From: an uncultured Bacillota bacterium | Lineage (GTDB): Bacteria; Bacillota; Clostridia; Christensenellales; Borkfalkiaceae | Direction of reading: 5' to 3' | Assembly: GCA_949282465.1 (NCBI GenBank) | Contig: CASDPM010000108.1 | Span: forward strand, 1-43,621 | Length of the DNA: 43,621 nt | In this document: positions 9,571 to 33,133 of the stretch, piece by piece | How the letters are laid out: each line of letters opens with the position of its first letter | Position numbering within the stretch: the stretch's first letter is position 1 | The notes under the pieces: model-generated | The model's input: only the letters and a program-made list of their open reading frames with translations | The model's database searches: none | What the model was told of the DNA's origin: nothing | Position numbers and translations under genes: made by a program

Positions 9571-9810
9571 ATTTTCTCCTTTATATAAACGGAATGACCG
9601 TTTGTAAGTTTTTTTACCCCTTTATTATACACATTTTACCATAAAAAGTAAAACGTATTTAAAAGTAAGTAAAAGATTTTGACAAACCTGACCAAAAAAC
9701 GCTTGAAAAAAAAGTCGTATAATAGTATACTATTATCAATCGTTTTGTTAAAGATAGTTTAACTTTCGGTTTTAACTTAAGAAATACACTTTACTATAAG
9801 GAGATATATT

Positions 9811-10884
9811 ATGCGAGTTTATAACTTTGCAGCAGGTCCTTCCACACTTCCCCTTCCCGTTCTCGAACAGGCTCAAAAGGAACTTCTCGATTTTAACGGT
9901 ACGGGTATGAGCGTTATTGAAATGAGCCACAGAAGTAAACCCTTCATGGCTGTCAATGACGAAGCGAACGCTCTTCTTCGCGAACTTATGGGTATTCCCG
10001 ACGATTATTCGGTACTCTTCGTTCAAGGTGGCGCTACCCAACAGTTTGCCGCTGTTCCGCTTAACCTTTTGGTAAACGGTAAGGCCGACTATATTCTTAC
10101 GGGTAACTTTGCATCCAAAGCGTATGAAGAAGGCCTTAAATACGGTGATATGGCTATTGCCGCTTCTTCAAAAGAAGCAAAGTATACCTACATCCCCGAT
10201 ATGAAAGACGTTAAGTTTAGGGATGGTATCGACTACGTTCACACCACTTACAACAACACCATTTTTGGAACGCGTTACACCGAACTTCCTAAAACCGACG
10301 CTACGCTCGTTACCGATATGAGTTCTTGTATTTTAAGCGAAGTTGTTGACGTTAAAAAATTCGGTTTAATTTACGCAGGCGCACAAAAAAATATTGCACC
10401 CGCAGGGCTTACTATCGTTATCGTTAGAAAAGATTTACTAGGCAAGGCTTCGCCCGTTTGCCCCGTTATGCTTAACTACGCTATACACGATAAGAATGAC
10501 AGTCTTTACAACACGCCCCCGTGTTTCCCCATCTATATGTCTCTTTTAGTTTTCAGATGGCTTAAATCGTTGGGCGGTGTTCCCGTTATTCAAAAGATTA
10601 ACGAAGAAAAGGCTAAAATGCTTTACGATTTTATTGATAATTCCTCTTTCTATACCAACAAAGTTAACAAGAAAGATCGTTCTATCATGAACGTTCCGTT
10701 CGTTTCACCTAGCGAAGAACTCGACGCTAAATTCGTTGCAGAAGCAACCAAAGCAGGTCTTGTTTCGCTTAAAGGACACAGAGTTACGGGCGGTATGAGA
10801 GCATCTATATACAACGCTATGCCTATCGAAGGCGTTAAAGCGCTTATTGATTTTATGAAGAAGTTTGAAATGGAGAACAAATAA
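9811..10884 (+). CDS. serC: phosphoserine aminotransferase
   Basis: 357 aa. N-terminus MRVYNFAAGPSTLP is typical of SerC. AAGGAG SD. Stop overlaps the serA start (TAATG). Confidence 0.9.
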   Translation: MRVYNFAAGPSTLPLPVLEQAQKELLDFNGTGMSVIEMSHRSKPFMAVNDEANALLRELMGIPDDYSVLFVQGGATQQFAAVPLNLLVNGKADYILTGNFASKAYEEGLKYGDMAIAASSKEAKYTYIPDMKDVKFRDGIDYVHTTYNNTIFGTRYTELPKTDATLVTDMSSCILSEVVDVKKFGLIYAGAQKNIAPAGLTIVIVRKDLLGKASPVCPVMLNYAIHDKNDSLYNTPPCFPIYMSLLVFRWLKSLGGVPVIQKINEEKAKMLYDFIDNSSFYTNKVNKKDRSIMNVPFVSPSEELDAKFVAEATKAGLVSLKGHRVTGGMRASIYNAMPIEGVKALIDFMKKFEMENK

Positions 10885-12862: not shown

Positions 12863-13231
12863 TTACATACTCTTTGCGCCGTTCATAAGATCTCCAAAAC
12901 CCAAACTGATTAAAAGCGCAGTATTAACTTTTCGCATCGTTACGGGCGATAACTCGCCGATACGTTCTTTAAGTCTTCTTTTGTCAAGCGTTCTAATTTG
13001 CTCTAAAAGTATTACCGAATCTTTCACAAGCCCAACTTCATTTGCACCTATCTCTATATGGGTCGGTAATTTCGCCTTGTTAAGTCGGCTTGTAATTGCC
13101 GCCGCTATTATCGTCGGACTGTATTTATTACCCGTATCGTTCTGAACGATCAGTATAGGGCGTATTCCACCCTGTTCACTACCTATCACAGGGCTTAAAT
13201 CAGCATAATATAATTCTCCTCTTTTAATCAT
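12863..13231 (-). CDS. mazF: MazF/PemK-family endoribonuclease toxin, EndoA (NdoA) type
   Basis: [61 protein letters not shown]...[16 protein letters not shown] is closely collinear with my recollection of B. subtilis EndoA. The ATG at 13231 is preceded by GGAGAC. The track start at 13267 is probably an over-extension. Confidence 0.9.
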
Positions 13232-13367
13232 AATGTCTCCGACGTATCCGATATTCCCCATTACCATTTTATGTATTTTTGCATTTATGGGTTACAAGAT
13301 ACTTTAATATGATTTTTCCCCTTGACGATTATTTTATACACTAATTTATTTTTTGCCCCTTCTATAA

Positions 13368-13396
13368 TTGACACCGTTTTACTTTTGTAGTAAAAT
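13368..13396 (+). promoter_or_regulatory. sigma-A promoter driving the tRNA-Arg(CCU) composite transcript
   Basis: TTGACA (13368-13373), 17 nt, TAAAAT (13391-13396). Confidence 0.65.
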
Positions 13397-13424: not shown

Positions 13425-13468
13425 ATAAATTCTCAACCAACTACATATAAATTCTCAACCAACTACAT
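13425..13468 (+). repeat. 22-bp direct tandem repeat ATAAATTCTCAACCAACTACAT x2
   Basis: Exact copies at 13425-13446 and 13447-13468. The 3' part (AACCAACTACAT) is also the start of each 112-nt unit. Confidence 0.9.
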
Positions 13469-13680
13469 TTTGGTTCCATAGTTAAACGGATATGTCGGAC
13501 AAGCCGACGGCGTTCGCAATCATTGATTGCTCGGCTAAACACTTGTTATCTCCGTTTAACTTTAACCTAACCAACTACATTTTGGTTCCATAGTTAAACG
13601 GATATGTCGGACAAGCCGACGGCGGTCGCAATCTTTGATTGCTCGGCTAAACACTTGTTATCTCCGTTTAACTTTAACCT
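13457..13680 (+). repeat. two 112-nt tandem units (110/112 identical), each made of the tRNA-Arg 5' segment plus a fold-back hairpin
   Basis: Units span 13457-13568 and 13569-13680. They differ only at 13513/13625 and 13522/13634. A third unit start (13681) runs into the real tRNA. Confidence 0.95.
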
Positions 13681-13695
13681 AACCAACTACATTTT

Positions 13696-13770
13696 GGTTC
13701 CATAGTTAAACGGATATAACAAGCCCCTCCTAAGGGCTAGTTCGGGGTTCGATTCCCTGTGGGACCGCCA
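13696..13770 (+). tRNA. tRNA-Arg (anticodon CCT), CCA encoded
   Basis: Manual cloverleaf: acceptor GGTTCCA/TGGGACC, D arm GTTA-AACGGATA-TAAC, anticodon arm AGCCC-CTCCTAA-GGGCT, variable AGTT, T arm CGGGG-TTCGATT-CCCTG, discriminator G, CCA. 75 nt. Confidence 0.85.
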
Positions 13771-13792
13771 AAAAAGTTTTCTTTGACCCCAT

Positions 13793-13882
13793 CGGGGTTC
13801 GATCACATAGCGGTGGACCGCAACCCTTTTGTTGCAAAAGCAACATTTCCCCTATTAGGGGAATCACCCTGTGGGTACGCCA
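13793..13882 (+). repeat. element X copy 1: 90-nt tRNA-3'-end-derived structured segment
   Basis: CGGGGTTCGAT + 63-nt insert (hairpins GCGG-TGGA-CCGC, GTTGC-AAAA-GCAAC, TTCCCC-TATTA-GGGGAA) + CCCTGTGGGTACGCCA. 85/90 identical to 32883-32972. Confidence 0.9.
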
Positions 13883-13883
13883 A

Positions 13884-13913
13884 AGACCACAAGATATTGT
13901 GGTCTTTTTTTTT
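13884..13913 (+). terminator. intrinsic terminator ending the tRNA-Arg / element X transcript
   Basis: AGACCACAA-GATA-TTGTGGTCT followed by T9. Confidence 0.85.
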
Positions 13914-13952
13914 ATTTTTGACTGTATATTGATTACGTTTAGCGTTTTACAT

Positions 13953-14177
13953 TTATACTTCATTTATACTTTCTGTTTTTTTACTGCTTTTCTTACGTTT
14001 TAATCTTCTAATTTTATAGTTTGTTTTTCTAAAAAATTCTTCTATAACGATTTCAAGCTGATAATAGTTGATTATCCATCTATTTCCATAATTATAAGTA
14101 AATACTCGTTTGTCTTTCAGAAAACGTTCTACGGTGTGTTTATCAATGATTTGACTAAACCGTCTACGTTTGTTGTT
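13953..14177 (-). pseudogene. 5'-truncated excisionase/MerR-like HTH (Xis-type) gene remnant
   Basis: A 74-codon open frame bounded upstream by TGA, with no ATG/GTG/TTG: NNKRRRFSQIIDKHTVERFLKDKRVFTYNYGNRWIINYYQLEIVIEEFF...; the G-x-RW-I...LE pattern is typical of phage/ICE excisionase-type HTH proteins. It abuts palindromic repeat A. Confidence 0.5.
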
Positions 14178-14188
14178 TCACATACGAA

Positions 14189-14234
14189 TGAAATGCACCC
14201 CCAAAAGTTAGACACTTTTAGGAGGTGCATTTCA
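14189..14234. repeat. palindromic repeat element, copy A (46 bp)
   Basis: TGAAATGCACCCCC-AAAAGTTAGACACTTTTA-GGAGGTGCATTTCA. It is the reverse complement (with small indels) of 36049-36092. A degenerate half copy lies at 14275-14298. Confidence 0.85.
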
Positions 14235-14410
14235 AAATACCGAACTCAATTCCAATACATTTAATTTAATTTTTTGTCTAAACTTTTGGGTTCACATCAA
14301 AAGGGATTTTTTATTTTTTTTGTTTTTTTCAATTTTTTTTCACGCTTTTAATGCTTTTTTTGTAAAAATAATGTAAAATATATAATAAGAGTTATATAAA
14401 AGGTTTGGTT

Positions 14411-15154
14411 ATGTTCGATACTTATTCTTTCACGCAAAAAAGAGAAAATAAATTTGTTATAAACCCGCACGTCCATGACAAATACGAATTCGTTTACTTT
14501 TTCAGCGGTAAAGGAACGATTAAATATATGAATAATGTGTTCGACTTTGCGGAACGTTCTTATTTTGTGATGGAACCCAACGTGTCTCACTGTCATTTTT
14601 ATTCAGAACAAAGCAACTGCCTTATCATCTGGTTCAAGCCGAACGAACAGATAAAACTGAAATCAACGGCGAAAAACGATTTACAGTTCGAAATAAGCAC
14701 CTTATGCCAGAAAATCAGGGATGAACTGGAGAGTAAAGCTTTAAATTTCGATAAAATGGCAAATGCGCTTGCGAATGAAATCATTTTTCATCTCATACGC
14801 GAACAAGACAAAAAAGAAGAAAACAATAATTATATTCTGAAAAATACCATAACATATATAGACGAATATTATATGACGCCGTTAAGGATAACCGATTTAG
14901 CAGATTCGTGCGGATATGCGGTCGACCATTACAGAGTGCTTTTTAAAAAAGAAACCGGCAAGTCGCCTAAGGATTATATAATGACCAAAAGGCAGAATCT
15001 TGCCGCTAAACTTTTGACCGAAACAAACATGACCGTCAGCGAAATTTGTTATTACTGCGGATTCGAATATGAATCGCATTTTTCGCGCTCTTTTAAAGAG
15101 AAATTTAAGGTAAGCCCGTTGCAATACCGGAAGAATACGCAACGGGACTTATAA
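14411..15154 (+). CDS. AraC family transcriptional regulator (cupin-like N-domain + HTH)
   Basis: The track ORF begins at a TTG (14405); the ATG at 14411 was chosen instead. The C-terminal AraC HTH region (ITDLADSCGYAVDHYRVLFKKETGKSPKDY... FSRSFKEKFKVSPLQYR) is typical. Confidence 0.9.
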   Translation: MFDTYSFTQKRENKFVINPHVHDKYEFVYFFSGKGTIKYMNNVFDFAERSYFVMEPNVSHCHFYSEQSNCLIIWFKPNEQIKLKSTAKNDLQFEISTLCQKIRDELESKALNFDKMANALANEIIFHLIREQDKKEENNNYILKNTITYIDEYYMTPLRITDLADSCGYAVDHYRVLFKKETGKSPKDYIMTKRQNLAAKLLTETNMTVSEICYYCGFEYESHFSRSFKEKFKVSPLQYRKNTQRDL

Positions 15155-15168
15155 CAAAATATTAAATT

Positions 15169-16245
15169 TCAGTTAAGTTTGCTGACTATTGTTTTCAATC
15201 TGCTTTCACTGCCGGTAAGTTTTCCTGCAATAATATCGTCTTCGGTTATTTTTGCAAGCAGAATTTCTTTCGCGCTGTCTGTTTCGTGTTGATTACGACT
15301 TCCACGTTCCCTATCGTAAACAATGTAAATATAGCCGTTTTCGCCTTCGACGGCGTCGGGATAAGACACTTTGTTTCTTTCGTCTAACAGCAAGGCAAAA
15401 GGAAAAGTTTTTCCGTCATCTTCGGAAAGCAAAGCCGTCAGATTATTTCTTCCCTTATACTTATAATGGTTTACCAAAAGTATTCTTCCCGATTTTAGCC
15501 TCCCGATAAAAAATCGGGAATTCGGATTCTTTATTCCCGAATCGTAGGGTTCGCTCCAACGGACTCCTCCGTCGTCTGACGTAGCCTTTTCAATATTTTC
15601 GGTTGTTCTTATATAAACTTCGAGAACGCCGTCCCGTCTTTCGAGAAACATATGCTCGTCGTAAGACGGTTTTTTACTTCTTACTCTTCCTTCAGGCTTA
15701 AATCCGTCTTTTCCCTGCTTTACCGCATACGCGCCGTCCGGAATATCGGATTTTTTGATTTTCATCTTTCGACAAACTTTAACGGTTTTTTCGTTAATAT
15801 TGTCCTTCCAGACGGATAACGGATATAAAACGCCGTAAGACGACGCCAAGGGCTTATTCAGCATAACTCCTTCGCCGACCACAAACGGCTCTCCCCACTT
15901 AAGAACGTCTTCCAGCGGGTTTTCGCATATTGCCGCCCAAGTTCTTACCTTTGGCATAGTCGACCAGAAAAGCCATAGTCTCCCTTCCGCATCTATGTAT
16001 AAACACGGATCGAAACACCTTGAAAATCTTCCCGCATATACTGCCGCAACAGGTTCGCCAAACCCTTTCCATTCGTTGCCTCTAAGTAAAACGCAGTAAT
16101 TGCCTAGCTGTTCGTCGTTTCCTCCGCTGTAAAAAACCACGAAAATATCGCCGTTTTTCGTTCTTTCGATACTTGGAATACCCTGCCACTTTCTTTTTGC
16201 CGAACCGAATTTTTTAAGATTTTCGGTATATATTCGCGGTTGCAT
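15169..16245 (-). CDS. cytoplasmic BNR/Asp-box beta-propeller protein (sialidase-fold glycoside hydrolase-like)
   Basis: 358 aa, no signal peptide. Asp-boxes TSDDGGVRWS and SEDDGKTF. No clear F/Y-R-I-P motif; the closest match is QGIPSI. Confidence 0.65.
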   Translation of the reverse strand: MQPRIYTENLKKFGSAKRKWQGIPSIERTKNGDIFVVFYSGGNDEQLGNYCVLLRGNEWKGFGEPVAAVYAGRFSRCFDPCLYIDAEGRLWLFWSTMPKVRTWAAICENPLEDVLKWGEPFVVGEGVMLNKPLASSYGVLYPLSVWKDNINEKTVKVCRKMKIKKSDIPDGAYAVKQGKDGFKPEGRVRSKKPSYDEHMFLERRDGVLEVYIRTTENIEKATSDDGGVRWSEPYDSGIKNPNSRFFIGRLKSGRILLVNHYKYKGRNNLTALLSEDDGKTFPFALLLDERNKVSYPDAVEGENGYIYIVYDRERGSRNQHETDSAKEILLAKITEDDIIAGKLTGSESRLKTIVSKLN

Positions 16246-16248
16246 ATT

Positions 16249-17268
16249 TTATCTCTGCACCCTCCCCGTAGAATCGCCTTTCATAAGACCTGAAACTTCG
16301 GTTTCCGTAACCAAGTTAAAATCTCCCTGAATAGAATGTTTAAGGCAACTTGCCGCAACCGCAAAATCGATTGCATACTGCGCTTCGCCGGTTTTCAACA
16401 AAGCGTGAATCAGAGCCCCGCCGAAGCTGTCTCCTCCTCCTACTCTGTCTACTATATGCATGGAATATTTACGTGAAAAATACGCTTTTCCACCTGTATA
16501 AAGCATCGCCGACCAATCGTTATCGTTTGCCGACTTGCTCTCCCTGAGCGTTACGGCAACGCCTTTTAAACCGAACATATCGGAAAGCTCTTTTGCCGCC
16601 TCGACATAACCCGCCTTATTAAGATTTCCACCGGTCACGTCGTTATTTTCCGTTTCTATTCCGAAAACGTCCTTCATGTCCTCTTCGTTGGCTATACAAT
16701 AATCCACAAAAGGAAGAATTTCACTCATCGTAGCTTTCGCTTTTTCGTTGGACCAGAGTTTTTTCCTGTAGTTTAAATCGCAAGAAACCGTCAAGCCGTT
16801 TTCTTTAGCAGTTTGCGCGGCTATACGCGTGATGTCGGCAACCGAGTCGGAAAGCGCCGGAGTTATACCCGTAAAGTGAAACCACTTTGCGTATTTAAAA
16901 ATTTCTTTCCAGTCAAAATCGTCTTTGTCTGCGCACGCAAAAGAAGAGCCCGCTCTGTCGTAAATAACCTTACTCGGTCTCTGCGAAGCTCCTTTTTCAC
17001 AAAAATATACGCCTAATCTGTTTCCGCCGCGGACGATATAATCGGAATTGACGCCGTATTTCCTTACCGCGTTTACCGCGGCTTGCCCTATTTCACCGGC
17101 AGGCACTTTACTTACGAAAACCGCTTCGTTACCGAAGTTTGCAAGAGAAACCGCCACGTTGGCTTCTGCGCCTGCATAAGTAGCTTCAAATTTGTCCGCC
17201 TGAACGAATCTTAAATAATTTTCAGGCATCAGTCTCAGCATTATTTCACCGAATGTAACTATTTTCAT
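16249..17268 (-). CDS. kdgK: 2-dehydro-3-deoxygluconokinase (PfkB family sugar kinase)
   Basis: 339 aa. N-terminus MKIVTFGEIMLRL and C-terminal VDRVGGGDSFGGALIH are typical of KdgK/PfkB. Adjacent to eda. Confidence 0.85.
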   Translation of the reverse strand: MKIVTFGEIMLRLMPENYLRFVQADKFEATYAGAEANVAVSLANFGNEAVFVSKVPAGEIGQAAVNAVRKYGVNSDYIVRGGNRLGVYFCEKGASQRPSKVIYDRAGSSFACADKDDFDWKEIFKYAKWFHFTGITPALSDSVADITRIAAQTAKENGLTVSCDLNYRKKLWSNEKAKATMSEILPFVDYCIANEEDMKDVFGIETENNDVTGGNLNKAGYVEAAKELSDMFGLKGVAVTLRESKSANDNDWSAMLYTGGKAYFSRKYSMHIVDRVGGGDSFGGALIHALLKTGEAQYAIDFAVAASCLKHSIQGDFNLVTETEVSGLMKGDSTGRVQR

Positions 17269-17278
17269 TTTTTCTCCT

Positions 17279-17953
17279 TTAAGCGTTCAAAGCGTTTACA
17301 AACAAGCCTGCTCTGCGCGTTATCTCTTCAAAATTGCCCGAATCGACAAGCTTGGCGTTGACAAGATTGCTTCCTATGCCGAATCCCGCCGCGCCGTTTT
17401 TGATAAAATAGGGAATGTTCGATTCGTCTATTCCCCCGACGCACAGAAAAGGTATATTGCTAAGCGGCGAAGAAATAGCTTTAAGATAATCTCCACCCAG
17501 ATTTCCCGCAGGAAAAAGTTTGACGAAGTCCGCGCCTGCAGCAGCCGCGCAGGAACATTCGCTAGGCGTCATTGCGCCCGGTATAGACACCAACCCCTTT
17601 TCTTTCGTTTTCCTGATAATTTCCGTATTTGTATCAGGCGATAATATAAATTTTGCGCCGGCACCCTCCGCAAGCTCAAGATTTTCCTTCGTCATAACAG
17701 TTCCTGCGCCTACAAACACGTCGCTAAACGTCGAAGCGACCTTTTTTATCGCTGCCGCCGTATCTTCGAGCGGAATTTTTCCGCTCTGATCAAAGGTTAT
17801 CTCTACGATATTTATTCCGCCTTTTAAAAGCGCGCTTACGGTCTCGGTAATTTTTTCTGAACGAACGCCGCGCAATATAGCTATCAGTTTTTTCTTCTTT
17901 ATTTCTTCAATAACATTATTCATTGTTTTTAACTCTCGACCTATTTTAGACAT
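17279..17953 (-). CDS. eda: KDPG / KHG aldolase
   Basis: 224 aa (an alternative start at 17923 gives MNNVIEE...). LIAILRG, GINIVEITF and GADFVKLFPA (Schiff-base Lys region) are typical of Eda. Confidence 0.85.
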   Translation of the reverse strand: MSKIGRELKTMNNVIEEIKKKKLIAILRGVRSEKITETVSALLKGGINIVEITFDQSGKIPLEDTAAAIKKVASTFSDVFVGAGTVMTKENLELAEGAGAKFILSPDTNTEIIRKTKEKGLVSIPGAMTPSECSCAAAAGADFVKLFPAGNLGGDYLKAISSPLSNIPFLCVGGIDESNIPYFIKNGAAGFGIGSNLVNAKLVDSGNFEEITRRAGLFVNALNA

Positions 17954-17956
17954 AAT

Positions 17957-17991
17957 TTATTCTGAATACGGTCAAACCGTATTCAGAATAA
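17957..17991 (-). other. perfect 16-bp inter-cistronic stem-loop between the 861-aa gene and eda
   Basis: TTATTCTGAATACGGT-CAA-ACCGTATTCAGAATAA. No U-tract follows on the coding strand, so it is a processing/stability element or partial terminator rather than a classic terminator. Confidence 0.6.
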
Positions 17992-18008
17992 ACAGCTTTT
18001 AGATTATT

Positions 18009-20594
18009 TTAATTTTCTTTTTTCGATTTTTTTACCAGAACGAATAAGAGAGAAGCCGCCATCAAAACCGATAAGACTGAAGTAGCTTCTACAGAAGAGC
18101 CACAACCGCCGCCGACCTTTTTATAAGTCAGAGTAATTTCCTTATTCTTTACCGGCGTAAAATGCAGGCTCTCGCTTGCGGAAACATATTCGTAATTTTT
18201 GATTTCGTCGGCATCGATTTCCGTATACTCGCCGTAATAAGCGTCAATAATCTTGTCTTCGGCAATGGCGTTGCCATTTTCGTCCACAAACTTAATCGTT
18301 ATTTTAACTACTCTCTTTTTATAAGTCATAGTTATGGTAATTGGTCCGTCAGCCTCGCCTTCTAAAGGAATGTCTGAAGAAACGAATTCGTATCCCACAA
18401 CAGTTTCGGGCGTAAGACTGTATACAATTCTACCGTCCACAAAGTCCGCCTGCTTGGTTATTGAACTCTTTACGACCGCTCCGTTTTCGTCTACAAAATT
18501 TAGCGTAATCTGAACGGCGCGTCTCTTTAATTCTACTGCCGCCAAAGCCTCTTCGTTATCGGAAGCAGAACCGTCGACGACAAACGAACCGGTAATCGAG
18601 TGTTTAATATAAACTTTCGTTCCAAGTTTGTTATTGCCCAGATTTACGTCCGCGTCAATCTTTGTCTCGTCCAAAGAATAATTGAGCGTGACCGGACTTA
18701 ATAATTCTTCGGTTATAACCTTTTCTCCCTTATACGATACCGCCGCGATGACTCCTATACCGGTAGGTCTGTTAGTGCCTTGCATGGATGCGGCTCTCGA
18801 ATCGAGACAGAAATGAAATTTTGTAAATACCACAGTGTCGGTAACTTTTAGATTCCCGGCAGGAGCTTCTACTTCGGCATAAGGCATTACCGTACCTGTA
18901 GTCGTCAAAACGTTCCAGGGAATAAACAGCGTGCCTTTGCTTTCTCTTTCAAGATTGTAATGGAACGACTCGTTTTCGAGAGACGACAAAGTTCCGTCTT
19001 CCAGCACGAAAGAATCATACCTGAGATTTCTTTCGTTAAACTTGTAAAGAACGCCGTCTGCAGTTTCAAGAAGCAACCTCGGCTGCTGCGTATCCTCCGC
19101 CACACTTCTGTCAATCTGAATAAGCAGCCCGTCTGCTTCGGCAGTGCTTACAGCGCCTAGTTCGAAAGTCGTCATGCTTAATTCGGTGGTTCCCTTACCC
19201 GTATTGGTTCCTACGATCATAACCGTACCCATGGTTTCGGTCTTTATGTTAACGCCGGCAAATTCATTATTTTCGTAAATAACGTCGTAATTTTTCAGCG
19301 CCGCGCTTTGGTATACGTAAGTTATCGTTCCATCTTCCGTTATTGTGCCCGAAAGATCTCTATCCGCAGCTTTGTATTTGTAGCCGAATACGCGCTTAGG
19401 TTCGCACGTATAATAATACCCGTCAGATTCGGCAGTTACTTTAGCCAACGTATCGTCCGCAATCTTTATTCCGTCTTCATCAACGTACTTTTCAGTAAGT
19501 TTCGGTCCGGGCTGTACGTCGTAAACAAGTTTTATCTTTGTGTTTGTAACGCAAGTTCCGCTCAGCGCGTCTGAACTTTCTGCGTTAAAGATATAACCGT
19601 TTATTGCCGGAACTTCCGCCGTGTAGTCGTACGCGTAATTCCCGTTAGTTGCGTTATAAGCGACTTTAAAGGTTTTGGAAACGTTCAGAGAAACGTTTTC
19701 GCTGTCGCAACATTCAAGAACGATCTCCGCCGAATTTCGGGTAAAGTTGAAAGCGGCAAGAGTTTCCGCATCCTGCGAGACGTTAAACGTTCCGTCGCAA
19801 GTATATTTTGAATAGATCTTCGTTCCTTTCGTCATATCCCCTAAATTCACGTCCGCAGTTGCCGCTTCGTTCGTAGTGAAAACAAGCGTTTCGGAATCTA
19901 GAAGAGGTGTAACCGTAGAAGCCGAGAGGTCGTCAACGTTCCTTCTTATCGACGCTATCGAGCCAATGACCGTGGAACGGGTAGACTGAAGTTGTGAAGC
20001 TATCCTCGACTGAACGATGAAATGCAGCCTCGTAAAGACCGTGCCGTTGGGAACGGGATCTCCTGCGGTTGGTGCGGTTACGGCTGACCCGGGCATTAGC
20101 GTTCCCGAAGCCGTTACCGACCCCCAAGGCACAAACAGCGTACCGTCAAGCTGCTTAGGCATTGAAAAAGTAATATTATTCGACCATCCCGACGTGTCTA
20201 AAACGGATCCGTCTTTATTTATGAACTTGTCGTTCGCATTGCTATAGAGCCTGTATAAAATACCGTCGGACGTTTCCAAAAGCATTCTCGGGTTTAAATC
20301 TCCCGTAGCCATACTGCGGTCTATTCTGATAAGAATACCGTTGGTTGAAGATTTTTCAAGATTGTCTAATTCATAGGTAATCATTACGTCTTGAGAGGTG
20401 CTTTGCGTCCTTCCGTCGCCGTAAAACATCAGACCGCCACCCGTCGACGACGTAAGGTTAACCCCGGCGAACTCTTCGCCGTTTATAATGATTTCTTTTC
20501 CCCAGTCCGCATATACCGACGTCATTCCGACAAAACAGGACAAAAGCATACACGTCAAGGCAGACAACAAACAAATTCTAATTCTTTTTTTCAT
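18009..20594 (-). CDS. large secreted cell-surface protein: two copies of an unassigned ~200-aa domain, MucBP-like repeats, C-terminal Cys-containing anchor
   Basis: 861 aa. Signal peptide MKKRIRICLLSALTCMLLSCFVGMTSVYA. Internal duplication (see findings). Repeats of the type KITIKFVDENGNAIAED...YEYVSAS...ITLTYKK resemble MucBP. C-terminus GGGCGSSVEATSVLSVLMAASLLFVLVKKSKKEN. Confidence 0.7.
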   Translation of the reverse strand: MKKRIRICLLSALTCMLLSCFVGMTSVYADWGKEIIINGEEFAGVNLTSSTGGGLMFYGDGRTQSTSQDVMITYELDNLEKSSTNGILIRIDRSMATGDLNPRMLLETSDGILYRLYSNANDKFINKDGSVLDTSGWSNNITFSMPKQLDGTLFVPWGSVTASGTLMPGSAVTAPTAGDPVPNGTVFTRLHFIVQSRIASQLQSTRSTVIGSIASIRRNVDDLSASTVTPLLDSETLVFTTNEAATADVNLGDMTKGTKIYSKYTCDGTFNVSQDAETLAAFNFTRNSAEIVLECCDSENVSLNVSKTFKVAYNATNGNYAYDYTAEVPAINGYIFNAESSDALSGTCVTNTKIKLVYDVQPGPKLTEKYVDEDGIKIADDTLAKVTAESDGYYYTCEPKRVFGYKYKAADRDLSGTITEDGTITYVYQSAALKNYDVIYENNEFAGVNIKTETMGTVMIVGTNTGKGTTELSMTTFELGAVSTAEADGLLIQIDRSVAEDTQQPRLLLETADGVLYKFNERNLRYDSFVLEDGTLSSLENESFHYNLERESKGTLFIPWNVLTTTGTVMPYAEVEAPAGNLKVTDTVVFTKFHFCLDSRAASMQGTNRPTGIGVIAAVSYKGEKVITEELLSPVTLNYSLDETKIDADVNLGNNKLGTKVYIKHSITGSFVVDGSASDNEEALAAVELKRRAVQITLNFVDENGAVVKSSITKQADFVDGRIVYSLTPETVVGYEFVSSDIPLEGEADGPITITMTYKKRVVKITIKFVDENGNAIAEDKIIDAYYGEYTEIDADEIKNYEYVSASESLHFTPVKNKEITLTYKKVGGGCGSSVEATSVLSVLMAASLLFVLVKKSKKEN

Positions 20595-20605
20595 TTCTTT
20601 CTCCT

Positions 20606-20734
20606 TTAATCAAAATCTATCGTCGGCAACTCGTACTCGCCAAGAGGCTTGTTGGCGTCACCGCTGAGCATAAGGATATCCTGTGCCGAAAAACATAGGA
20701 TATCAATTTCCAAAGCAATATAATTCTTTTTCAT
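20606..20734 (-). CDS. 42-aa small protein between the two large paralogs
   Basis: The track ORF 20606..20797 is over-extended. The ATG at 20734 is preceded by GAGGTG, and the TGA stop of the upstream gene lies inside this SD. Product: MKKNYIALEIDILCFSAQDILMLSGDANKPLGEYELPTIDFD. Its stop lies 11 nt before the next gene's ATG. Confidence 0.55.
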   Translation of the reverse strand: MKKNYIALEIDILCFSAQDILMLSGDANKPLGEYELPTIDFD

Positions 20735-20738
20735 TTTA

Positions 20739-22703
20739 TCACCTCTGATTAAAATAATTTCGAGCGGATTCAGCATACAGATACATCGCTTTAACAAGGT
20801 CGGAAAGCTCCGTATCGGAATCGTTAAAGCAAGACTGGAAGTAAGCGTATGGATTAATGTTGATTTCCGCGCCGCCCAAAGTAAAAGTTATCTGATCCGA
20901 TAGTTTTGCCGAAACGATTTCTTTGGATATTCCGTACCAGCCGTTGCCTATTTCGGATAATTGGGTTTCCTGCCCGTCTACGGTAAACGTTATGCCGGTT
21001 ATATCTCTGCCGTCTTTTACACGGACGTAGAAATTAAACACAATCGAATCTTTGCAGGACAGAGAATAACTTATGCCGGAAACGGCGTCAGGCAATTCGC
21101 CCGTTTTACTCTTTATAACGTTTTCAATCGTATCGGTTTCAACGGATTTTTCCTGTTCTGAGAGTCCCGAATTTGCCAGATTTTCAGTATCCACGTTAAA
21201 ATAAGTCTGCGCGTATGCCCCGTAATTAAGTGTAGCTTTTATAAGCGTTTTAAGGCTTTCTGAGCTTGTTTCCAGAGTTAAAAGCTTTTCGGCATATTCC
21301 TTAAAGGAATAGCTCTTTTCTTCACTCGTAGACGTTCCGTTATCCACAACGATATTTATATTTTTAGTCATTTCGGCTGCGTTAATCTTGTAGACGAATG
21401 CGTACGTCCCGTCTCCGTTGTCGATTGCGTCGGCAGCTTTAAGCCCCGTCGCTTCGTTTATGGAAACGATTGCCGTTTCTTTTACGCTGTCATCGATTTC
21501 GATATTGAACCGCATAGCTATTCTTTCATCAAGTATAGCGCTAACCGATTTTATTTTCGTTACAGGTTTATATATAAGACTTATTTCGGCCTCACAATAC
21601 ACGGTCCCGGTAACTGCGCTTTCAGATTCGACCTTGACGTATCCCGTGATATCGCAATACAGATCGGTTGCGTCGTAAACGAATCCGCCGGAATCGGAAT
21701 CGAACACCAAAGACGTTACGGCGTACGTTTTACCTGATTCGGGTTCGGTAATGGCTTTTCCGTTTTTATCCGAATATCTAACCGTAAGGTTAACGTTTTT
21801 CCTCGAGTACTGCAAAAGTCCGTGTTCGTCACCCGTCGTGATAAAGCTGCCGCCGGCAGTAATACAATACTTTCCTAAAACTTTATTTCCTTTGGTAATA
21901 TCCCCGAAATTAACGTCCGCCTCGATTGCGGGATCCGCAGCAGACGTTAGCAACGGCGATTCAAACAGGCGGGTTACGGTAGAATTATCGGGAACTGCAG
22001 AGTCGAATTTTACAGCGCCGATAGTGCTTACCGTAATCGGTCTTGCGGGGTTAAGCGCTGCCTGAGAAGAATTCGAACGTATAACGTAATGGAATGCGGT
22101 TATTACCGTATCGTCGCCGATAACGGAGTCAGCCGCAGGCGCCGTAGCGGAAGAACCGGGAACAATCTTGCCCGCCGAAAATATATATTCTTTAGGCATA
22201 TAAATAGTATAAGCGGACTTAGGAAGAGTAAAATTATATCCGCTCGTTGCAGTACCTTTTACGTTAACCGCGTTATTATTCGTGTTATAAGCAACAGCCC
22301 CGTCAATTTTAACGCGGTAAAGGACGCCTTCTGCGCTTTCCACATAAAACCAAGCAAACTGATTCCCGCCAGAGCCGATTTCAATCTGACAGAACAAGCC
22401 GTCGATATCACCGACTTTTACTCCGCTTCCGAGATTATAACTTATAATAGGCGAATTAGTTGTTTTATCTGAAGGCTGAGCTTTGCCGCTGACTATCACC
22501 GCTCCGTTCGAATTGTTGCGGGAATTGATTCCAAGAAAATCATTCGTGTTTTCGTCTACAATGATGTAATAATCGAAATCTTTCGCCGCACTGACGCTAT
22601 CTGCACCGTTCAGATTAAAAAACGAAAAACATGCCGCAATCAACGAAAACAGAGCTATCGCCGCGAGATATGAGACGCATCTCAATTTGTTCACAGTTTT
22701 CAT
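20739..22703 (-). CDS. secreted protein carrying one copy of the same unassigned ~200-aa domain plus a C-terminal domain of unknown function
   Basis: 654 aa. Signal peptide with hydrophobic core YLAAIALFSLIAACF. The N-terminal domain is paralogous to both domain copies of the 861-aa protein. No C-terminal anchor. Confidence 0.7.
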   Translation of the reverse strand: MKTVNKLRCVSYLAAIALFSLIAACFSFFNLNGADSVSAAKDFDYYIIVDENTNDFLGINSRNNSNGAVIVSGKAQPSDKTTNSPIISYNLGSGVKVGDIDGLFCQIEIGSGGNQFAWFYVESAEGVLYRVKIDGAVAYNTNNNAVNVKGTATSGYNFTLPKSAYTIYMPKEYIFSAGKIVPGSSATAPAADSVIGDDTVITAFHYVIRSNSSQAALNPARPITVSTIGAVKFDSAVPDNSTVTRLFESPLLTSAADPAIEADVNFGDITKGNKVLGKYCITAGGSFITTGDEHGLLQYSRKNVNLTVRYSDKNGKAITEPESGKTYAVTSLVFDSDSGGFVYDATDLYCDITGYVKVESESAVTGTVYCEAEISLIYKPVTKIKSVSAILDERIAMRFNIEIDDSVKETAIVSINEATGLKAADAIDNGDGTYAFVYKINAAEMTKNINIVVDNGTSTSEEKSYSFKEYAEKLLTLETSSESLKTLIKATLNYGAYAQTYFNVDTENLANSGLSEQEKSVETDTIENVIKSKTGELPDAVSGISYSLSCKDSIVFNFYVRVKDGRDITGITFTVDGQETQLSEIGNGWYGISKEIVSAKLSDQITFTLGGAEININPYAYFQSCFNDSDTELSDLVKAMYLYAESARNYFNQR

Positions 22704-22725
22704 TTTTTCCCTCCTTTTTCGGCTT

Positions 22726-24390
22726 TTAACCCCGCCGACGGGGACTTAATTTATTTAACTTTCTTATGAAAAAACTCGCTCCTGCCACAATCAGAGTCAA
22801 AATTAGGCCATTAGCCTCTATTCCGGCTCCGCAGCCGCTTTTGTTTCCGCCGTCATTAGGATCGTTAGCATTGCCCACGTAGACCTTAAAACTCAACAGA
22901 TTGAACGAATCCTGAAGTTTTACCGTTTCGGTAGAAGGAAGAGTGGTCCTGAACGTACCGTTATAAATACCGTCAACATCCCCTTTATATCCCGAAACAG
23001 AATAACTGCCCGAAAGAACGTGGTCGTTACCGTACTCGTCCGTTACGGTTATTTCGGACGGCATGTTTTTTATCAGTTCGCTGAACGTTGTCCCTTTAGA
23101 TACCCTTATCTTTTTTTCGAAAGCGCCGTTGACCGATACGATATCCGCGTACTCTTCGTGTATTTTTGTAATAGGTATCAGCTGCCTGGAATTTTCGGAA
23201 ATAAATTCACCCGCTTTTATATCTTCTTCTGTAAGAATGCAAAGCCTGATTCCACCCTCTCCGTAACGATGTTTATCGAACAGAATATAAATCGTTCCGT
23301 CGTCAGTCTGATAAATGTCTGGATAAGAGGTGATATAATTATCGAGAAGTAGAGAATAATTCCAGGTTTTTCCGTCATCTTCGCTGAGGTATGCTGTCAT
23401 TTTCCGCCTGTTCGTAGAGCCCATGCCCTCCGCATTCGTTACGAGTAGCAATGCACCGGACTTAAGTCTTTTCATATCGAATCTGCTTCCCGGCGAATAA
23501 AACGGCTTTGGCAAATTTGATTCGCCTGCCGTCCACGTCAGACCTTTGTCAGAAGAAAAATACTGTTCCATGCCACCGTTTACGGCGTTTTCAAGTCTTC
23601 TTATCGCCCAGTACCTGCCGTCGTTGAGTTCGACAAGCGTAGATTCTGCATAGCGTTTAGCATTTTTATCGGTGTCCGACGTCATTGTAGAAATCTTTTT
23701 ATATGATATCCCATGGTCGTCGGAACGGTAAAACGCTGCGTCGTTCGTAGACGAATCTCCCGAGCCGGAAACGTATCCTATCGTGCCGTCGGATAACACC
23801 GTGGGTTTCGTGAAACTGGAATTTTTCACTCCGATGCTAAACGGCGCATCGTATGTTATTTCGGACAAATCACCGTCGGCATTATAAATCGGGAGAGCGT
23901 GCACTCCGTTTGCCCTGTGGAAAAAAAGCAAAAACAACTGCCCCTGATCATTGTAGTAAAACATCGGAACGGTTATCATTACTTTTTCGGGCGGATCGAT
24001 AATCATAAACGGATCTATCCACGTATTTCCGCCGTCGGTACTTGCGGCGACGGTAATATAATTATAGTCCGAAGGTTCTTTATCTCCTCCCGTCTGCCAT
24101 GCGGCGAAAATATTATTTCCCGCAACAATGACGGAGGAAACTCCGCACCATCTTCTGTCGGACGGGTTATAAGTTTCGTACTCCGCCGTGTCTTTGTTCA
24201 TCGATGAATCAAGCGGAACGGAAAGATCGGTAGTGCTGTCCACAATGGTAACGATTTCTTTTCCTAAAACGTGATTTACGGAGCTTCCCGCATTAGCTTC
24301 GGTTACGCCTTTGCCGATGAACGACAAGGGCGTAGCGCAAAACAAAAAAACAATCACAGGAAAAATTATATGCTTTATTGCTTTCTGCAT
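22726..24390 (-). CDS. secreted BNR/Asp-box beta-propeller protein with C-terminal Cys-containing anchor
   Basis: Start moved to the ATG at 24390 (AAAGGAG SD), giving MQKAIKHIIFPVIVFLFCATPLSF... Asp-boxes ASTDGGNTW, SSDKGLTW and SEDDGKTW. C-terminus SGCGAGIEANGLILTLIVAGASFFIRKLNKLSPRRRG. Confidence 0.7.
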   Translation of the reverse strand: MQKAIKHIIFPVIVFLFCATPLSFIGKGVTEANAGSSVNHVLGKEIVTIVDSTTDLSVPLDSSMNKDTAEYETYNPSDRRWCGVSSVIVAGNNIFAAWQTGGDKEPSDYNYITVAASTDGGNTWIDPFMIIDPPEKVMITVPMFYYNDQGQLFLLFFHRANGVHALPIYNADGDLSEITYDAPFSIGVKNSSFTKPTVLSDGTIGYVSGSGDSSTNDAAFYRSDDHGISYKKISTMTSDTDKNAKRYAESTLVELNDGRYWAIRRLENAVNGGMEQYFSSDKGLTWTAGESNLPKPFYSPGSRFDMKRLKSGALLLVTNAEGMGSTNRRKMTAYLSEDDGKTWNYSLLLDNYITSYPDIYQTDDGTIYILFDKHRYGEGGIRLCILTEEDIKAGEFISENSRQLIPITKIHEEYADIVSVNGAFEKKIRVSKGTTFSELIKNMPSEITVTDEYGNDHVLSGSYSVSGYKGDVDGIYNGTFRTTLPSTETVKLQDSFNLLSFKVYVGNANDPNDGGNKSGCGAGIEANGLILTLIVAGASFFIRKLNKLSPRRRG

Positions 24391-24401
24391 TTTTACTCCT
24401 T

Positions 24402-26297
24402 TTAATTTGATCCGTATACCCATTGAGGCAACGTCATATATTTATCAGCTGAACCAAAAAGTTTTACTTCGGGCGCGGTGTAGGACGGATCGTTCTTCGG
24501 CCATGCGTAAGTTACGCCCATTGCCTCTTTATAACTTAAGAAACATTTGTTTCTGAATGCAAGCCATTCGGTGGCGCCTTCAGAATAACTCTTTGCCAAA
24601 GCCACGTCGTATATTTCCTTTGCCTTCGCATTGCTGTTTGCCATTATCATCTTCGGCAAAGCTTCGATCCACGTTGCTTCTATGTCCGCCTGTCTGTCTA
24701 TATATTTATTAAGCTCTTTTCGGTCGCTGGTATCCAGCGGGAATCTGAACAGCGTTCTCGAGAAAGTGTTGTCAAAATACGTTTTTTTGATCTTATAACT
24801 TGCCCAGTGTGCAGGAGTAACTATTCCGGCATAATCGTCGTATTCGGAAACCATACGCGCGTACATGGAATTTACGAGCGGGGAAAGTCTGCCAAGTCCC
24901 AAAGTCGTTACGGGGACTCTATTCCCTTCCGAAACAGCTTTCTTAAGCTGTTCCGTCGGTTCAATCAGACCGTAGGTAGATACTTTCCCGGTTTTGGGAT
25001 TTATTTCGCCCGGGCGAATCTTGTAAGTATAATATTCGCCTTCGGTCTCGCCGTATATCATTTCGCGTTGACCCTGTTCGCTCATAAGATAGTCGAGCAC
25101 CTTTATTACGCGGTCTTCTCTCTTGCAGTTTTTGGTAATCATAACGTTGTAAAGTCCGCGACCTGCGTAATCCATAAGAAGCGGAGCGTCGCCGGCTTCA
25201 TTGGTAAGCATTATACTTACGTACTCGTTTGCTTCGTTGACGGTGTTATTATCTTTGTTGTATCCGCTCTGCTCGCGCATGGATATCTGCTTATTGTTGT
25301 TCTGATTGTTACCTATCGAAGCAAACGACTTACCGTTCACTATCTGGGTTTTACAATCGTTTACGCTGTAAGCAAAGTTAGAAGAAGAAATAAGCTTATT
25401 AGTGTATAAATCGTTCAGAAAATATATTACGTCCACGAACTCTTTAGTATCGTACTGATAGACCAGATTGCCTTCAGAATCTTCGTAAGGCACGCTGAAA
25501 AATTCCATAAGCCCGGTCAGACTGTAAGATATAACGTCGTTTACCGCCGTTTTAAGGAATGGCGTTAGTAATACGGTGGGGTTAGAGTTGGAAAGTCCTT
25601 TCTCACGCTTAACCCACTTACACATTTCAATAAAACCCGAAGGTTTGGTTATTGTCGTATTTTCGTCGAAAGAGGGATCAATGCCTTTTTTGTATTCTAT
25701 ATAGTCGTTAAGCCAGTCTAGTCTGACGATTACGTCGCAAAGAGAATACTGTTTTCCGCCCATTTCCTCAAACTCCTTGAGATCGGCGTCGTTGTAGAAG
25801 TTTGAAGCAAGCGTATAAGTGTTGCCGTCGGAAGCTTTATAGTAGTCCCAGTGTTCCTGCGATACGCGTTTTAAAAGGCTAGGCGCATAACTTTGTGCAA
25901 GCTTGTTTATTGCATAACAATATCCTTCTTCGGCAAGCTGAACCCTGAGCGACATATCGTTCAACGAAATTATGTCGGGAAGTTTTCCGCCCGCAATAGC
26001 GGTATTAAGCTCCGCGTGGTCGTTGTTAAGCGCAGTCTGAAAATTGACTTTTACTCCCGTTCTCTTATAAATAAGTTCTTCGTATTCCTGACTTGCCCAA
26101 GCAAAGTCCATCAGCCAGTTGATCTCCACGTCCTCGTCCGTAGGATCGATCTGAAGCCATGAATCTACGTTCGGGTCGTAATCGGTAGAATATCTGGTAT
26201 AGTCCGCGTCGCTATTTTCTTTCGAATCAAAGCAAGCAGTTAAGCTACCGAACATCATAACTACAACGACTAATAGTATAACAATCCTTTTTTTCAT
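24402..26297 (-). CDS. ABC transporter extracellular solute-binding lipoprotein (large LplA-like type)
   Basis: 631 aa. Lipobox MKKRIVILLVVVVMMFGSLTAC. The size and its position downstream of LplB/LplC-like permeases fit this type. Confidence 0.8.
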   Translation of the reverse strand: MKKRIVILLVVVVMMFGSLTACFDSKENSDADYTRYSTDYDPNVDSWLQIDPTDEDVEINWLMDFAWASQEYEELIYKRTGVKVNFQTALNNDHAELNTAIAGGKLPDIISLNDMSLRVQLAEEGYCYAINKLAQSYAPSLLKRVSQEHWDYYKASDGNTYTLASNFYNDADLKEFEEMGGKQYSLCDVIVRLDWLNDYIEYKKGIDPSFDENTTITKPSGFIEMCKWVKREKGLSNSNPTVLLTPFLKTAVNDVISYSLTGLMEFFSVPYEDSEGNLVYQYDTKEFVDVIYFLNDLYTNKLISSSNFAYSVNDCKTQIVNGKSFASIGNNQNNNKQISMREQSGYNKDNNTVNEANEYVSIMLTNEAGDAPLLMDYAGRGLYNVMITKNCKREDRVIKVLDYLMSEQGQREMIYGETEGEYYTYKIRPGEINPKTGKVSTYGLIEPTEQLKKAVSEGNRVPVTTLGLGRLSPLVNSMYARMVSEYDDYAGIVTPAHWASYKIKKTYFDNTFSRTLFRFPLDTSDRKELNKYIDRQADIEATWIEALPKMIMANSNAKAKEIYDVALAKSYSEGATEWLAFRNKCFLSYKEAMGVTYAWPKNDPSYTAPEVKLFGSADKYMTLPQWVYGSN

Positions 26298-26398
26298 TTT
26301 ATTTTATGCTCCTTATATTTTTTTGCGACGTAAAGAAGATCCACGTCACATTTATTTAACGTTTAAATAATCGGTTTTTCGCAAGCAAGCGAATCGCC

Positions 26399-27280: not shown

Positions 27281-27281
27281 A

Positions 27282-28232: not shown

Positions 28233-28329
28233 TTTCCGTTCCTTCTTTTTTTATACTTAATTACATGCCGGAGACGCTTAAAAATGGGGATTTTTATTGT
28301 TTTCCGTGATTATGTAAGCCGTTTGCCTC

Positions 28330-30867: not shown

Positions 30868-30874
30868 ATATTTG

Positions 30875-32143: not shown

Positions 32144-32253
32144 AACCTATATTCTCCTCTTTTTTTCTTTAAAGATACCATAAATTAACCTATCTATCAA
32201 GACATAAACCCGTGATATTTATCATAATTTTTATACTTTTCCGAGTTTAAAAT

Positions 32254-32288
32254 AAAAAGTTCACGGTAAAAATACCCGTGAACTTTTT
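32254..32288. terminator. bidirectional hairpin terminator/insulator upstream of the glycan cluster
   Basis: AAAAAGTTCACGG-TAAAAATAC-CCGTGAACTTTTT. Confidence 0.6.
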
Positions 32289-32972: not shown

Positions 32973-32984
32973 AAAATTTAATAA

Positions 32985-33062: not shown

Positions 33063-33133
33063 AACGTATGGGTTTTGTTCGGGTTTTTTTGTACTATTTT
33101 GATAAAAATATACTATAAAAGGAGATATAGAAT

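Follow-up and report, generated by a model that had tools for sequence, protein, structure and literature searches.

Genes for tRNAs are classic landing pads of genomic islands, and the partial tRNA copies found at the ends of such islands are usually treated as inert scars. Here we describe a scar of this kind that holds a conserved, covarying module, recurring on fragments of at least four different tRNAs and with no recombinase gene nearby. It was found in a contig of 43,621 nt (CASDPM010000108.1, assembly GCA_949282465.1; the whole stretch is called the window below, and comparison loci fetched for this work carry L-numbers), as two 90-nt repeats, X1 and X2, that belong to an island at a tRNA-Arg(CCU) gene. 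Each of the two consists of the T-arm and acceptor 3' end of this tRNA, interrupted by 63 nt, and this insert, the module, is a new structured motif tied to tRNA-fragment junctions. The described islands and integrative elements at tRNA genes, bounded by left and right attachment sites (attL and attR; Reiter, 1989; Williams, 2002; Islander; summarised in PMC9897764), resemble the island of the window in ending with an intact tRNA on one side and with a directly repeated, partial copy of its 3' part on the other, in being missing from a sister genome, in carrying accessory metabolic cargo and in the repeated use of one site, with relics left behind. Unlike them, the window island has no integrase, its tRNA copy is split at the T-loop by the module, an extra copy (X1) lies inside it, and the cargo is a chromosomal cluster of another lineage, including a broken neighbour gene.

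Elements without an integrase of their own are known as well. The cis-mobilisable islands of Streptococcus (CIMEs) are integrase-less and have ordinary attachment (att) repeats, and the cargo-only satellites of tycheposons are reportedly tRNA-targeting, again with ordinary att repeats. With both of these the window island shares a cargo flanked by att-type repeats at a tRNA gene, the lack of a recombinase, which by analogy would make it dependent on one supplied in trans, and the accumulation of relics at a hot spot, so that it may behave as an integrase-less island mobilisable in cis, or as a satellite of tRNA-targeting elements that carries cargo only. To our knowledge, no conserved hairpin module common to different tRNA targets has been described for either.

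The module itself invites comparison with recombination sites that are folded single strands, such as integron attC and the attP of phage CTX. It is like them in having a compensatory structure with drifting stems, a fixed loop and fixed unpaired bases, and in lying at the boundaries of variable, promoterless cargo. It differs from attC in lacking R''/L''/L'/R' boxes and a GTTRRRY core and in being linked to tRNA 3' ends instead of an integron platform, and from both in that no connection with IntI or Xer was seen. By analogy, the module would be closest in spirit to integron attC, a likeness at the level of function by which no membership is claimed. We could find no described counterpart of it among the systems compared, and it is absent from Rfam and from the phage, plasmid and viral collections searched.

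The island at tRNA-Arg(CCU) and the repeats X1 and X2

The closest homolog of the window's PflB (98% amino acid identity) is encoded on a sister contig from another metagenome-assembled genome (MAG), L001, in which the order is MazF, a promoter, one copy of a sequence that we call the 5' unit (see below), tRNA-Arg(CCU), 18 nt, the ZTP riboswitch and pflB. Window positions 13576-13774 align with L001 9647-9846, and 32957-36048 with L001 9827-12915, at 91-93% nucleotide identity; relative to L001, the window has an insertion of 19,202 nt (13775-32976) at the 3' end of tRNA-Arg(CCU). A direct repeat of 20 nt, CCCTGTGGGACCGCCAAAAA, in which the 3' strands of T-stem and acceptor are followed by CCA and AAAA, marks the left boundary at 13755-13774 (forward strand). 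An identical copy lies at 32957-32976 (forward strand), from which point on the window is collinear with L001, and in L001 itself the repeat is single-copy (9827-9846). Because tRNA-Arg, ZTP riboswitch and pflB are adjacent in L001, with one copy of the repeat, we read the segment as an inserted island of 19.2 kb; L001 could equally be a deletion derivative, and the repeats delimit a variable segment either way.

The locus thus has the intact tRNA at one end, the 3' partial repeat at the other and the empty site in a relative that are expected of Islander-type islands, but not the expected integrase, since no Pfam recombinase was found in island ORFs (open reading frames) of at least 80 aa. 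As in CIMEs, att-type repeats flank an island without integration or transfer genes. Taken as a whole, the island is a composite, decayed product of repeated use of tRNA-Arg(CCU) as a landing site. An earlier note on this DNA had proposed for X a tRNA-derived origin with an attachment-site history, which the empty site of L001 backs. It had also considered that X could be nothing more than att repeats around an island; the repeats do flank a variable island, but the insert is structurally conserved and not a passive scar.

The intact tRNA-Arg(CCU) (13696-13770, forward strand; ARAGORN and Rfam) is 100% identical to the tRNA of L001. X1 (13793-13882, forward strand) and X2 (32883-32972) are equal at 85 of 90 positions (BLAST E ~1e-36), the five mismatches being A/C at 15, C/T at 58, G/T at 66 and TA/AC at 83-84. 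The coordinates, the sequences and the degree of match reported before were reproduced by BLAST and sequence comparison, and ARAGORN and Rfam confirmed the tRNA-Arg(CCU) 5' of X1 and the ZTP riboswitch 3' of X2 (32986-33067, forward strand), beyond which lies pflB (33134-35362, forward strand), collinear with L001. Within the window, the 15-mer GGTGGACCGCAACCC from the insert occurs solely in X1 and X2. For neither 13793-13882 nor 32883-32972 did Rfam give a match, whether gathering scores or a cut-off of E = 10 were applied.

X2 is the distal junction of the island, at which island DNA is followed by the module and then by the native tRNA 3' end and the native flank. It is part of a pseudo-tRNA-Arg 3' part (32865-32972, forward strand) in which 29 nt of full identity with the tRNA are followed by the module (32894-32956) and then by the T-stem 3' strand, acceptor and CCA of the native gene. 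The 29-nt block (32865-32893) is by BLAST the same as 13725-13753, from the anticodon stem to the T-loop, and the module sits exactly at the junction between T-loop and T-stem 3' strand of the tRNA-Arg(CCU) fragment. X2 had been taken for a whole tRNA paralog with an expanded T-loop and a degenerate 5' acceptor strand; neither view was borne out, as the BLAST identity starts at 32865, the 3' part alone is present, from the anticodon stem on, and ARAGORN called no tRNA at X1 or X2. In annotation, X2 must therefore not be labelled a tRNA.

X1 starts 18 nt inside the left boundary of the island and is built of the T-stem 5' strand plus TTCGAT, the three-hairpin module (13804-13866) and then CCCTGTGGGTACGCCA. 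It is an internal relic, with a 3' end, GGGTACGCCA, and a downstream flank that derive from an element-borne tRNA-Arg of the L044/L035 type (see below). It is an older junction of the same kind as X2, imported together with the terminator and a decayed gene of a small tyrosine-integrase element specific for tRNA-Arg, of which L035 and L044 hold intact examples. We regard it as very probable that X1 and X2 are both pseudo-tRNA junctions of an island at tRNA-Arg.

The module in other loci and its fold

A strict pattern of the insert with fixed stems gave no matches in 185,579 species-representative (GTDB) genomes and in viral contigs; it was too strict, because the stems of the module covary. 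A scan with the 29-mer that runs from anticodon to T-loop of the tRNA returned 27 Christensenellales/Clostridia loci, among them L041 with an X-like element after tRNA-Arg. A relaxed pattern was then derived from the linker and hairpin-3 sequence conserved between the window and L041, with hairpin 2 left free and hairpin 1 uncovered, and it matched four metagenome contigs (L049-L052) as well as L029 and L041. Eight copies are known in total, six of them beyond the window (Christensenellales MAGs and metagenome), and in these six a T-stem/T-loop-like piece, GGTTCRAT, precedes the module. Nested duplication of an attachment core had been one of the earlier explanations of the insert; it is instead a discrete module of about 60 nt, found at six other loci.

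The tRNA-like 3' end that comes after the module, 16 nt long in the four clearer cases (L029, L041, L051 and L052), can be assigned with varying certainty. In L029 it matches tRNA-Pro(CGG), 16/16 to the intact gene just upstream, and in L051 tRNA-Leu(CAA), where the 16/16 match is followed by 36 nt of that tRNA's terminator. The L052 copy corresponds to tRNA-Ser(GGA) at 13 of 16 positions, and that of L050 is Ser-type (about 12/16, a less secure assignment) at 1.8 kb from tRNA-Ser(GCT), with a GDSL-like ORF and a Zn-ribbon ORF in between. L041 has an Arg variant that is mismatched to the neighbouring tRNA, and L049 a degenerate tRNA-like end, also less securely assigned, at a non-tRNA intergenic site with 95-nt direct repeats in a locus without any tRNA. 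Wherever an intact tRNA is present upstream (the window copies, L029, L041, L050, L051 and L052), the module is co-oriented with it, at distances of about 50-120 nt, 1.8 kb (L050) or up to 19 kb (window). The 3' ends of X1, L041 and L049 are unlike their present neighbours, and therefore the module and its flanks travel together as relics.

No recombinase was found beside the module in L029, L041, L050 and L051, nor in L049, where a large ORF upstream of the module has no Pfam match. IMG/VR viral contigs had no matches to four module patterns or to the tRNA 29-mer, phage and plasmid collections searched by BLAST with X1 and with a consensus-like module yielded chance matches or none, and a covariance model of the module detected no further copies in 428 kb of fetched loci.

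The fold was tested on an alignment of the eight sequences, two of which come from the window and three from one metagenome. The structure comprised an outer helix GGGTT (a piece of the T-stem)/AACCC, hairpin 1 with 4 bp and the loop TAGC, hairpin 2, and hairpin 3 (TTCCCC-TANTA-GGGGAA). Paired cells amounted to 90%, compared with 39-52% when the partners were slid by 1-3 columns, and compensatory changes on both sides were seen in seven pairs, four of which make up the whole stem of hairpin 1 while the other three lie in hairpin 2. Hairpin 1 appears as CACC/GGTG, CGAC/GTCG, CCCT/AGGG, CCAC/GTGG or TTCC/GGAA, and hairpin 2 as GTTGC/GCAAC, GTCC/GGAC, GTCAAC/GTTGAC, GTCAGC/GCTGAC or GTCGC/GCGAC, with lengths of 11, 13, 14, 15 and 17 nt. 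The linkers GAC(C/G)GCAACCCTTTTGT and ACATTT are nearly invariant, as is hairpin 3. Not one of 500 shuffles reached the observed number of paired cells, compensatory pairs or compensatory cells, or the covariation score; for a fifth measure, further pair types, 56 of 500 did.

As in structured elements generally, pairs are kept by compensatory substitution, and hairpins 1 and 2, where this is seen, were not constrained by the search pattern. We consider these covariation statistics supportive, not final. The length shifts of hairpin 2 break the reading frame, and the module is therefore non-coding; a peptide coded across it was rejected for the same reason. The first hairpin had been drawn as GCGG-TGGA-CCGC, a pairing that is not kept, since the homologs retain an overlapping 4-bp stem with loop TAGC (CACC-TAGC-GGTG in X2). 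The earlier verdict of no clean covariation is true of the window's two copies by themselves but not of the set with homologs added, in which hairpins 1 and 2 show compensatory changes.

Readings of the module

The reading that we favour, with moderate confidence, is that the module is the element-side arm of a recombination site directed at the tRNA T-arm, which accretes cargo without a linked integrase. The partner of this arm in recombination would be a tRNA gene's T-arm and 3' end: a circle consisting of cargo, a T-stem-like 5' piece, the module and a tRNA 3' end would cross over, in Campbell fashion, within the 16-20 nt of the tRNA 3' end, leaving on one side an intact tRNA followed by cargo and on the other the module joined to the 3' end of the native gene. 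Had the crossover fallen on the opposite side of the module, no functional tRNA would be left, and selection would remove such products. Catalysis would fall to a recombinase encoded elsewhere and acting in trans, because no copy has a recombinase nearby. The conservation of paired hairpins together with fixed loops and linkers suggests that the site is recognised in the form of a folded strand or by a protein specific for its structure. Several tRNA identities are joined to the module at one and the same nucleotide, and this speaks for a site-specific step directed at the T-arm, at any rate when each lineage arose. If the module is the working part of an attachment site, or a guide-like RNA, this would explain how integrase-less cargo with rhamnosidase and sugar-uptake genes moves among gut Christensenellales, and the module would be a new structured motif usable for locating island boundaries.

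A minimal integrative element of the same tRNA gene, the one in L035, can be compared with the window. It measures about 3.2 kb (L035 232-3490) and carries a 147-codon ORF (orf147), a 66-codon ORF and a tyrosine integrase of 472 aa (PF00589); it also brings a complete tRNA-Arg of its own, with promoter, and splits the older resident tRNA-Arg in the anticodon loop into two dead halves, with the identity block CTCCTAAGGG. The same type of mini element is found in L005, L024, L029, L034, L037, L042 and L044. The window is like it in the tRNA used and in the terminator, keeps the 3' end of its orf147, and the tRNA similarity of X2 starts at the attR block of the element (X2 begins to resemble the tRNA at CCTCCTAAGGG, where the L035-type attR has its identity block). 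Unlike the window, the L035/L044 type crosses over in the anticodon loop, has its own complete tRNA-Arg and tyrosine integrase, and leaves an attR without the module; this use of the anticodon loop and the module-free attR indicate that the module belongs to a different system. In L005, two left-end relics of the mini element are stacked.

Several points weigh against the element-side arm. In the intact element of the L035 type, the recombination point is the anticodon loop and attR is without the module. The enzyme and the crossover point are inferred, since no autonomous element with the module beside a recombinase was found, and we know of no classical tyrosine-integrase att-site arm with covarying hairpins. 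The 95-nt non-tRNA repeats of L049 and the repeat in L051, which extends 36 nt past the tRNA, would fit homologous recombination or local duplication equally well. The window junctions are known from a single MAG contig (exact-protein look-ups with the window MazF and PflB gave no match), and with eight copies the covariation rests on few independent lineages.

A more far-reaching proposal, which we think rather improbable, is that an undescribed recombination system, aimed at the universally conserved T-arm and hence usable with many tRNAs, has the module as its recognition element. The module would be read in the manner of attC, through a folded strand, or would serve as an RNA scaffold with a 16-nt 'address' from the tRNA 3' end, and by its means integrase-less cargo of tens of bases to 19 kb would build up behind the tRNA genes of gut Christensenellales. 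The covarying 5' unit could be its 5'-side counterpart.

It is also possible, although we doubt it, that the module functions as an RNA, made as the trailer of a tRNA (X1) or the leader of pflB (X2) and serving as a decoy or sponge for a reader of tRNA 3' ends, or as a scaffold-plus-guide RNA. The co-orientation with intact upstream tRNAs would suit such an RNA, and so would the terminator after most copies. In the window, a strong promoter-like site, TTGACA-17-TAAAAT (13368-13396, forward strand; 11/12 consensus), lies upstream of the 5' units, the tRNA-Arg and X1, and an intrinsic terminator, AAAGACCACAAGATATTGTGGTCTTT plus a T run (13882-13917, forward strand; homologous to the post-tRNA-Arg terminator of L024, L029, L035, L037, L038, L042 and L044), follows X1, with none between. 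Transcription from 13368-13396 is inferred from the consensus match alone. X2 is likewise preceded by a promoter-like site, at 32614-32642 (forward strand), which could drive X2, the ZTP riboswitch and pflB. In L029, L041, L051 and L052, however, the tRNA's own terminator comes before the module and no convincing promoter is seen there, and the differing downstream contexts (terminator or riboswitch) leave no common cis-regulatory target.

The fold is open to the same reading, given the compensatory changes in two hairpins with a fixed TAGC loop, one T-G wobble on the tRNA-sense strand (pair 70-78) and a 63-nt insert that folds better than its shuffles (z = -4.4), yet Rfam has no match to it even at E = 10. 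As to a guide, the layout of a conserved scaffold plus 16 variable nt that match a nearby gene is guide-RNA-like, but recombination by itself accounts for a 3' tail that matches the neighbouring tRNA, without any need for RNA function, and a guide that matches an intact gene of its own genome would be self-targeting. A TnpB-style guide RNA in particular was rejected, as it would target the intact tRNA of its own cell and the module is too short.

An unlikely alternative is a tiny non-autonomous mobile element, either a miniature inverted-repeat transposable element (MITE) or one derived from IS200/IS605 and similar to palindrome-associated transposable elements (PATEs), that inserts after TTCRA(T) in T-loops, the intact tRNAs upstream being later repairs or duplications. 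Like MITEs and PATEs, the module is small, hairpin-rich and non-coding, occurs in several copies in related genomes and has no transposase nearby. It occupies the identical T-loop position in copies on identifiable tRNAs (Arg, Pro, Leu and Ser); in the window, its site is identical in the native and the element-borne tRNA-Arg 3' halves. One metagenome supplied three copies, the modules of L050 and L052 are near-identical, the remnant of a second module, GTTGCAAAAGCAAC, lies just upstream of the L029 copy, and several left junctions have short palindromes built on the T-stem.

Against such an element, the module was never seen within an otherwise complete tRNA gene, the 5' half being missing in every copy. 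Set beside an IS200/IS605-derived PATE or an omega-RNA scaffold, it follows a TTCRAT-like T-loop sequence and has many hairpins, yet it always comes with duplicated tRNA ends and always lies in a tRNA 3' fragment, and at 63 nt it is much shorter than, and below the known sizes of, PATEs and MITEs. There are no terminal inverted repeats (the ends are CAC(A/C)TAGCGG and GGGGAATCA), as a MITE would have, and the flanking repeats of 16, 20, 52 and 95 nt are long and variable and do not amount to a target duplication of fixed length. Pieces of flanking tRNA move along with the module (X1, L041, L049), and the fetched loci, as distinct from whole genomes, which were not searched, contain no IS200/IS605 transposase (TnpA) or TnpB.

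We consider it very unlikely that X is a neutral recombination scar with functionless hairpins, its copies being similar by recent common descent. There are eight copies only, several of them close relatives, with little variation in hairpin 3 or the linkers, as in recent copies, and tRNA fragments are commonplace at island ends (PMC9897764). A neutral scar would not be expected, though, to show changes on both sides with pairing kept in four pairs of hairpin 1 and three of hairpin 2 (against the lower pairing of the slid controls), nor to have hairpin 2 swapped for very different sequences and lengths that still pair, nor to be joined at the same nucleotide to at least four unrelated tRNA identities.

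Hardly credible is a chimeric metagenome assembly with two organisms joined at tRNA-like repeats, for although the window is a MAG contig, its cargo is 96-98% identical to contigs of other MAGs and its flanks 91-92% to L001, and the same junctions were found in no second assembly, both flanks come from one collinear genome (L001) with the insert placed precisely in the tRNA and a 20-nt duplication, unique DNA of 550 and 290 nt is found at the junctions, with a remnant of orf147 such as typifies tRNA-Arg elements, repeats of 20-29 nt are too short for such a double mis-join, and X-like modules occur independently in other assemblies.

Other candidates were tried and rejected. As a primer-binding site of retroviral type (complement of a tRNA 3' end), X matches in only 6 of the first 7 bases. 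Casposon or Cas1-type insertion does not agree with the lack of terminal inverted repeats and the varying duplication lengths, and a tRNA intron (group I or archaeal bulge-helix-bulge) was discarded because every copy is without the tRNA's 5' half, no Rfam intron matches and 63 nt is far below group I size.

Parts of the island and relics around tRNA-Arg

The cargo is a sugar-utilisation cluster of 18.25 kb (14323-32574), 96-98% identical to L008-L020 and 93% to L021, where it stands in other contexts. It encodes an AraC regulator, BNR proteins, a PfkB kinase, a KDPG aldolase, a MucBP protein, an ABC transporter, an alpha-L-rhamnosidase and a GDSL hydrolase. Its relatives are on contigs of other Borkfalkiaceae/Christensenellales assemblies, between unrelated genes, with a methionine-type permease on one side and either a small ORF and a sigma factor or rhamnose-biosynthesis genes on the other. 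In the window, the 3' fragment of the permease gene (32443-32574, reverse strand) remains as the broken end of this neighbour. Since the same cluster lies in unrelated contexts and the neighbouring permease is broken here, the cargo is no self-contained element but a piece from the chromosome of another lineage. Genes for AraC-family regulators or GDSL/SGNH hydrolases adjoin the module or tRNA-Arg relics in several unrelated loci (window 14405-15154 and 30875-32143; L051 3398-4621; L050 458-1144; L005 12923-13990), which may be coincidence or may reflect a preferred type of cargo.

To the left of the cargo, 13867-14188 is 90% identical at the nucleotide level to the DNA directly after the genuine tRNA-Arg(CCU) in L044 and 68-74% identical to the equivalents in L024, L029, L035, L037, L038 and L042. 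The homology spans the tRNA 3' end, the terminator (t/a)agaccacaaNatattgtggtc and the 3' end of orf147 on the opposite strand. What is left of the latter is a pseudogene (13953-14177, reverse strand; 74% amino acid identity, E 1e-28) with the last 74 codons, the N-terminal part gone and a Trp codon turned into a stop. An excisionase with a helix-turn-helix, which 13953-14177 resembled at first sight, was rejected, as neither Pfam nor PHROGs supports it and the segment is the C-terminus of orf147. The right flank (32575-32864, forward strand) is an AT-rich, non-coding stretch of 290 nt, in which the promoter-like site before X2 lies; it has no clear homolog in the fetched loci, the sole BLAST match being a weak one in L028 (67% over 170 nt).

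In L001 no terminator separates tRNA-Arg from the ZTP riboswitch and pflB (L001 9827-10001, corresponding to window 32957-33134), so that pflB may be co-transcribed with the tRNA there. In the window, the island lies between them, and the promoter-like site at 32614-32642 may have taken over. The window's pflB has been severed from the tRNA promoter, by which it seems to be driven in L001. Just upstream of the tRNA locus, and divergent from it, lies a MazF/PemK toxin gene (12863-13267, reverse strand), with no obvious antitoxin ORF in the 190-nt upstream region; L001 is arranged alike. Between pflA and the fucose isomerase gene, the window is without the beta-helix and trehalase-like GH63/MGH1 genes of L001 and L002 (window 36049-36096 versus L001 12916-15896), and in place of this two-gene segment a 48-nt hairpin is left (36049-36096), which is an inverted version of the hairpin 14187-14235 in the left flank of the island.

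On the 5' side of the tRNA there are two tandem 5' units of 112 nt (13457-13680, forward strand), each made of a 15-nt leader, tRNA nt 1-22, two hairpins and a D-arm complement. In all, 2.3 tandem copies extend over 13457-13717, with units at 13472-13567 and 13584-13679 and the conserved sequence GGCGTTC...CTCGGCTAAACA. L001 has a single copy (9655-9750), and homologs were found in L035, L037, L040, L041 and L046. In an alignment of eight sequences, 89% of cells are paired, nine pairs are compensatory and U-G wobbles fall on the tRNA-sense strand; Rfam gave no match to the 5' unit at gathering scores or at E up to 10. Given its position, the unit is probably part of the tRNA leader transcript. 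A split tRNA assembled from the 5' unit and X was rejected, since the acceptor strand of X1 is mismatched and carriers of the module at other tRNAs are without a 5' unit.

Other relics stand behind tRNA-Arg. Short relic modules were seen there in L022, L047, L039, L028, L046 and L033. After the tRNA-Arg(CCU) of L022 (6779-7057) there are three tandem units of 125 nt, each of which repeats the last 46 nt of the tRNA, and after that of L047 tandem units of about 150 nt. In several loci, a GAACCCC-GAAA-GGGGTTC palindrome is followed by 30-65 nt of filler and then by TTCCCTGTGGGNACGCCA, 18 nt that start from T-loop position 59.

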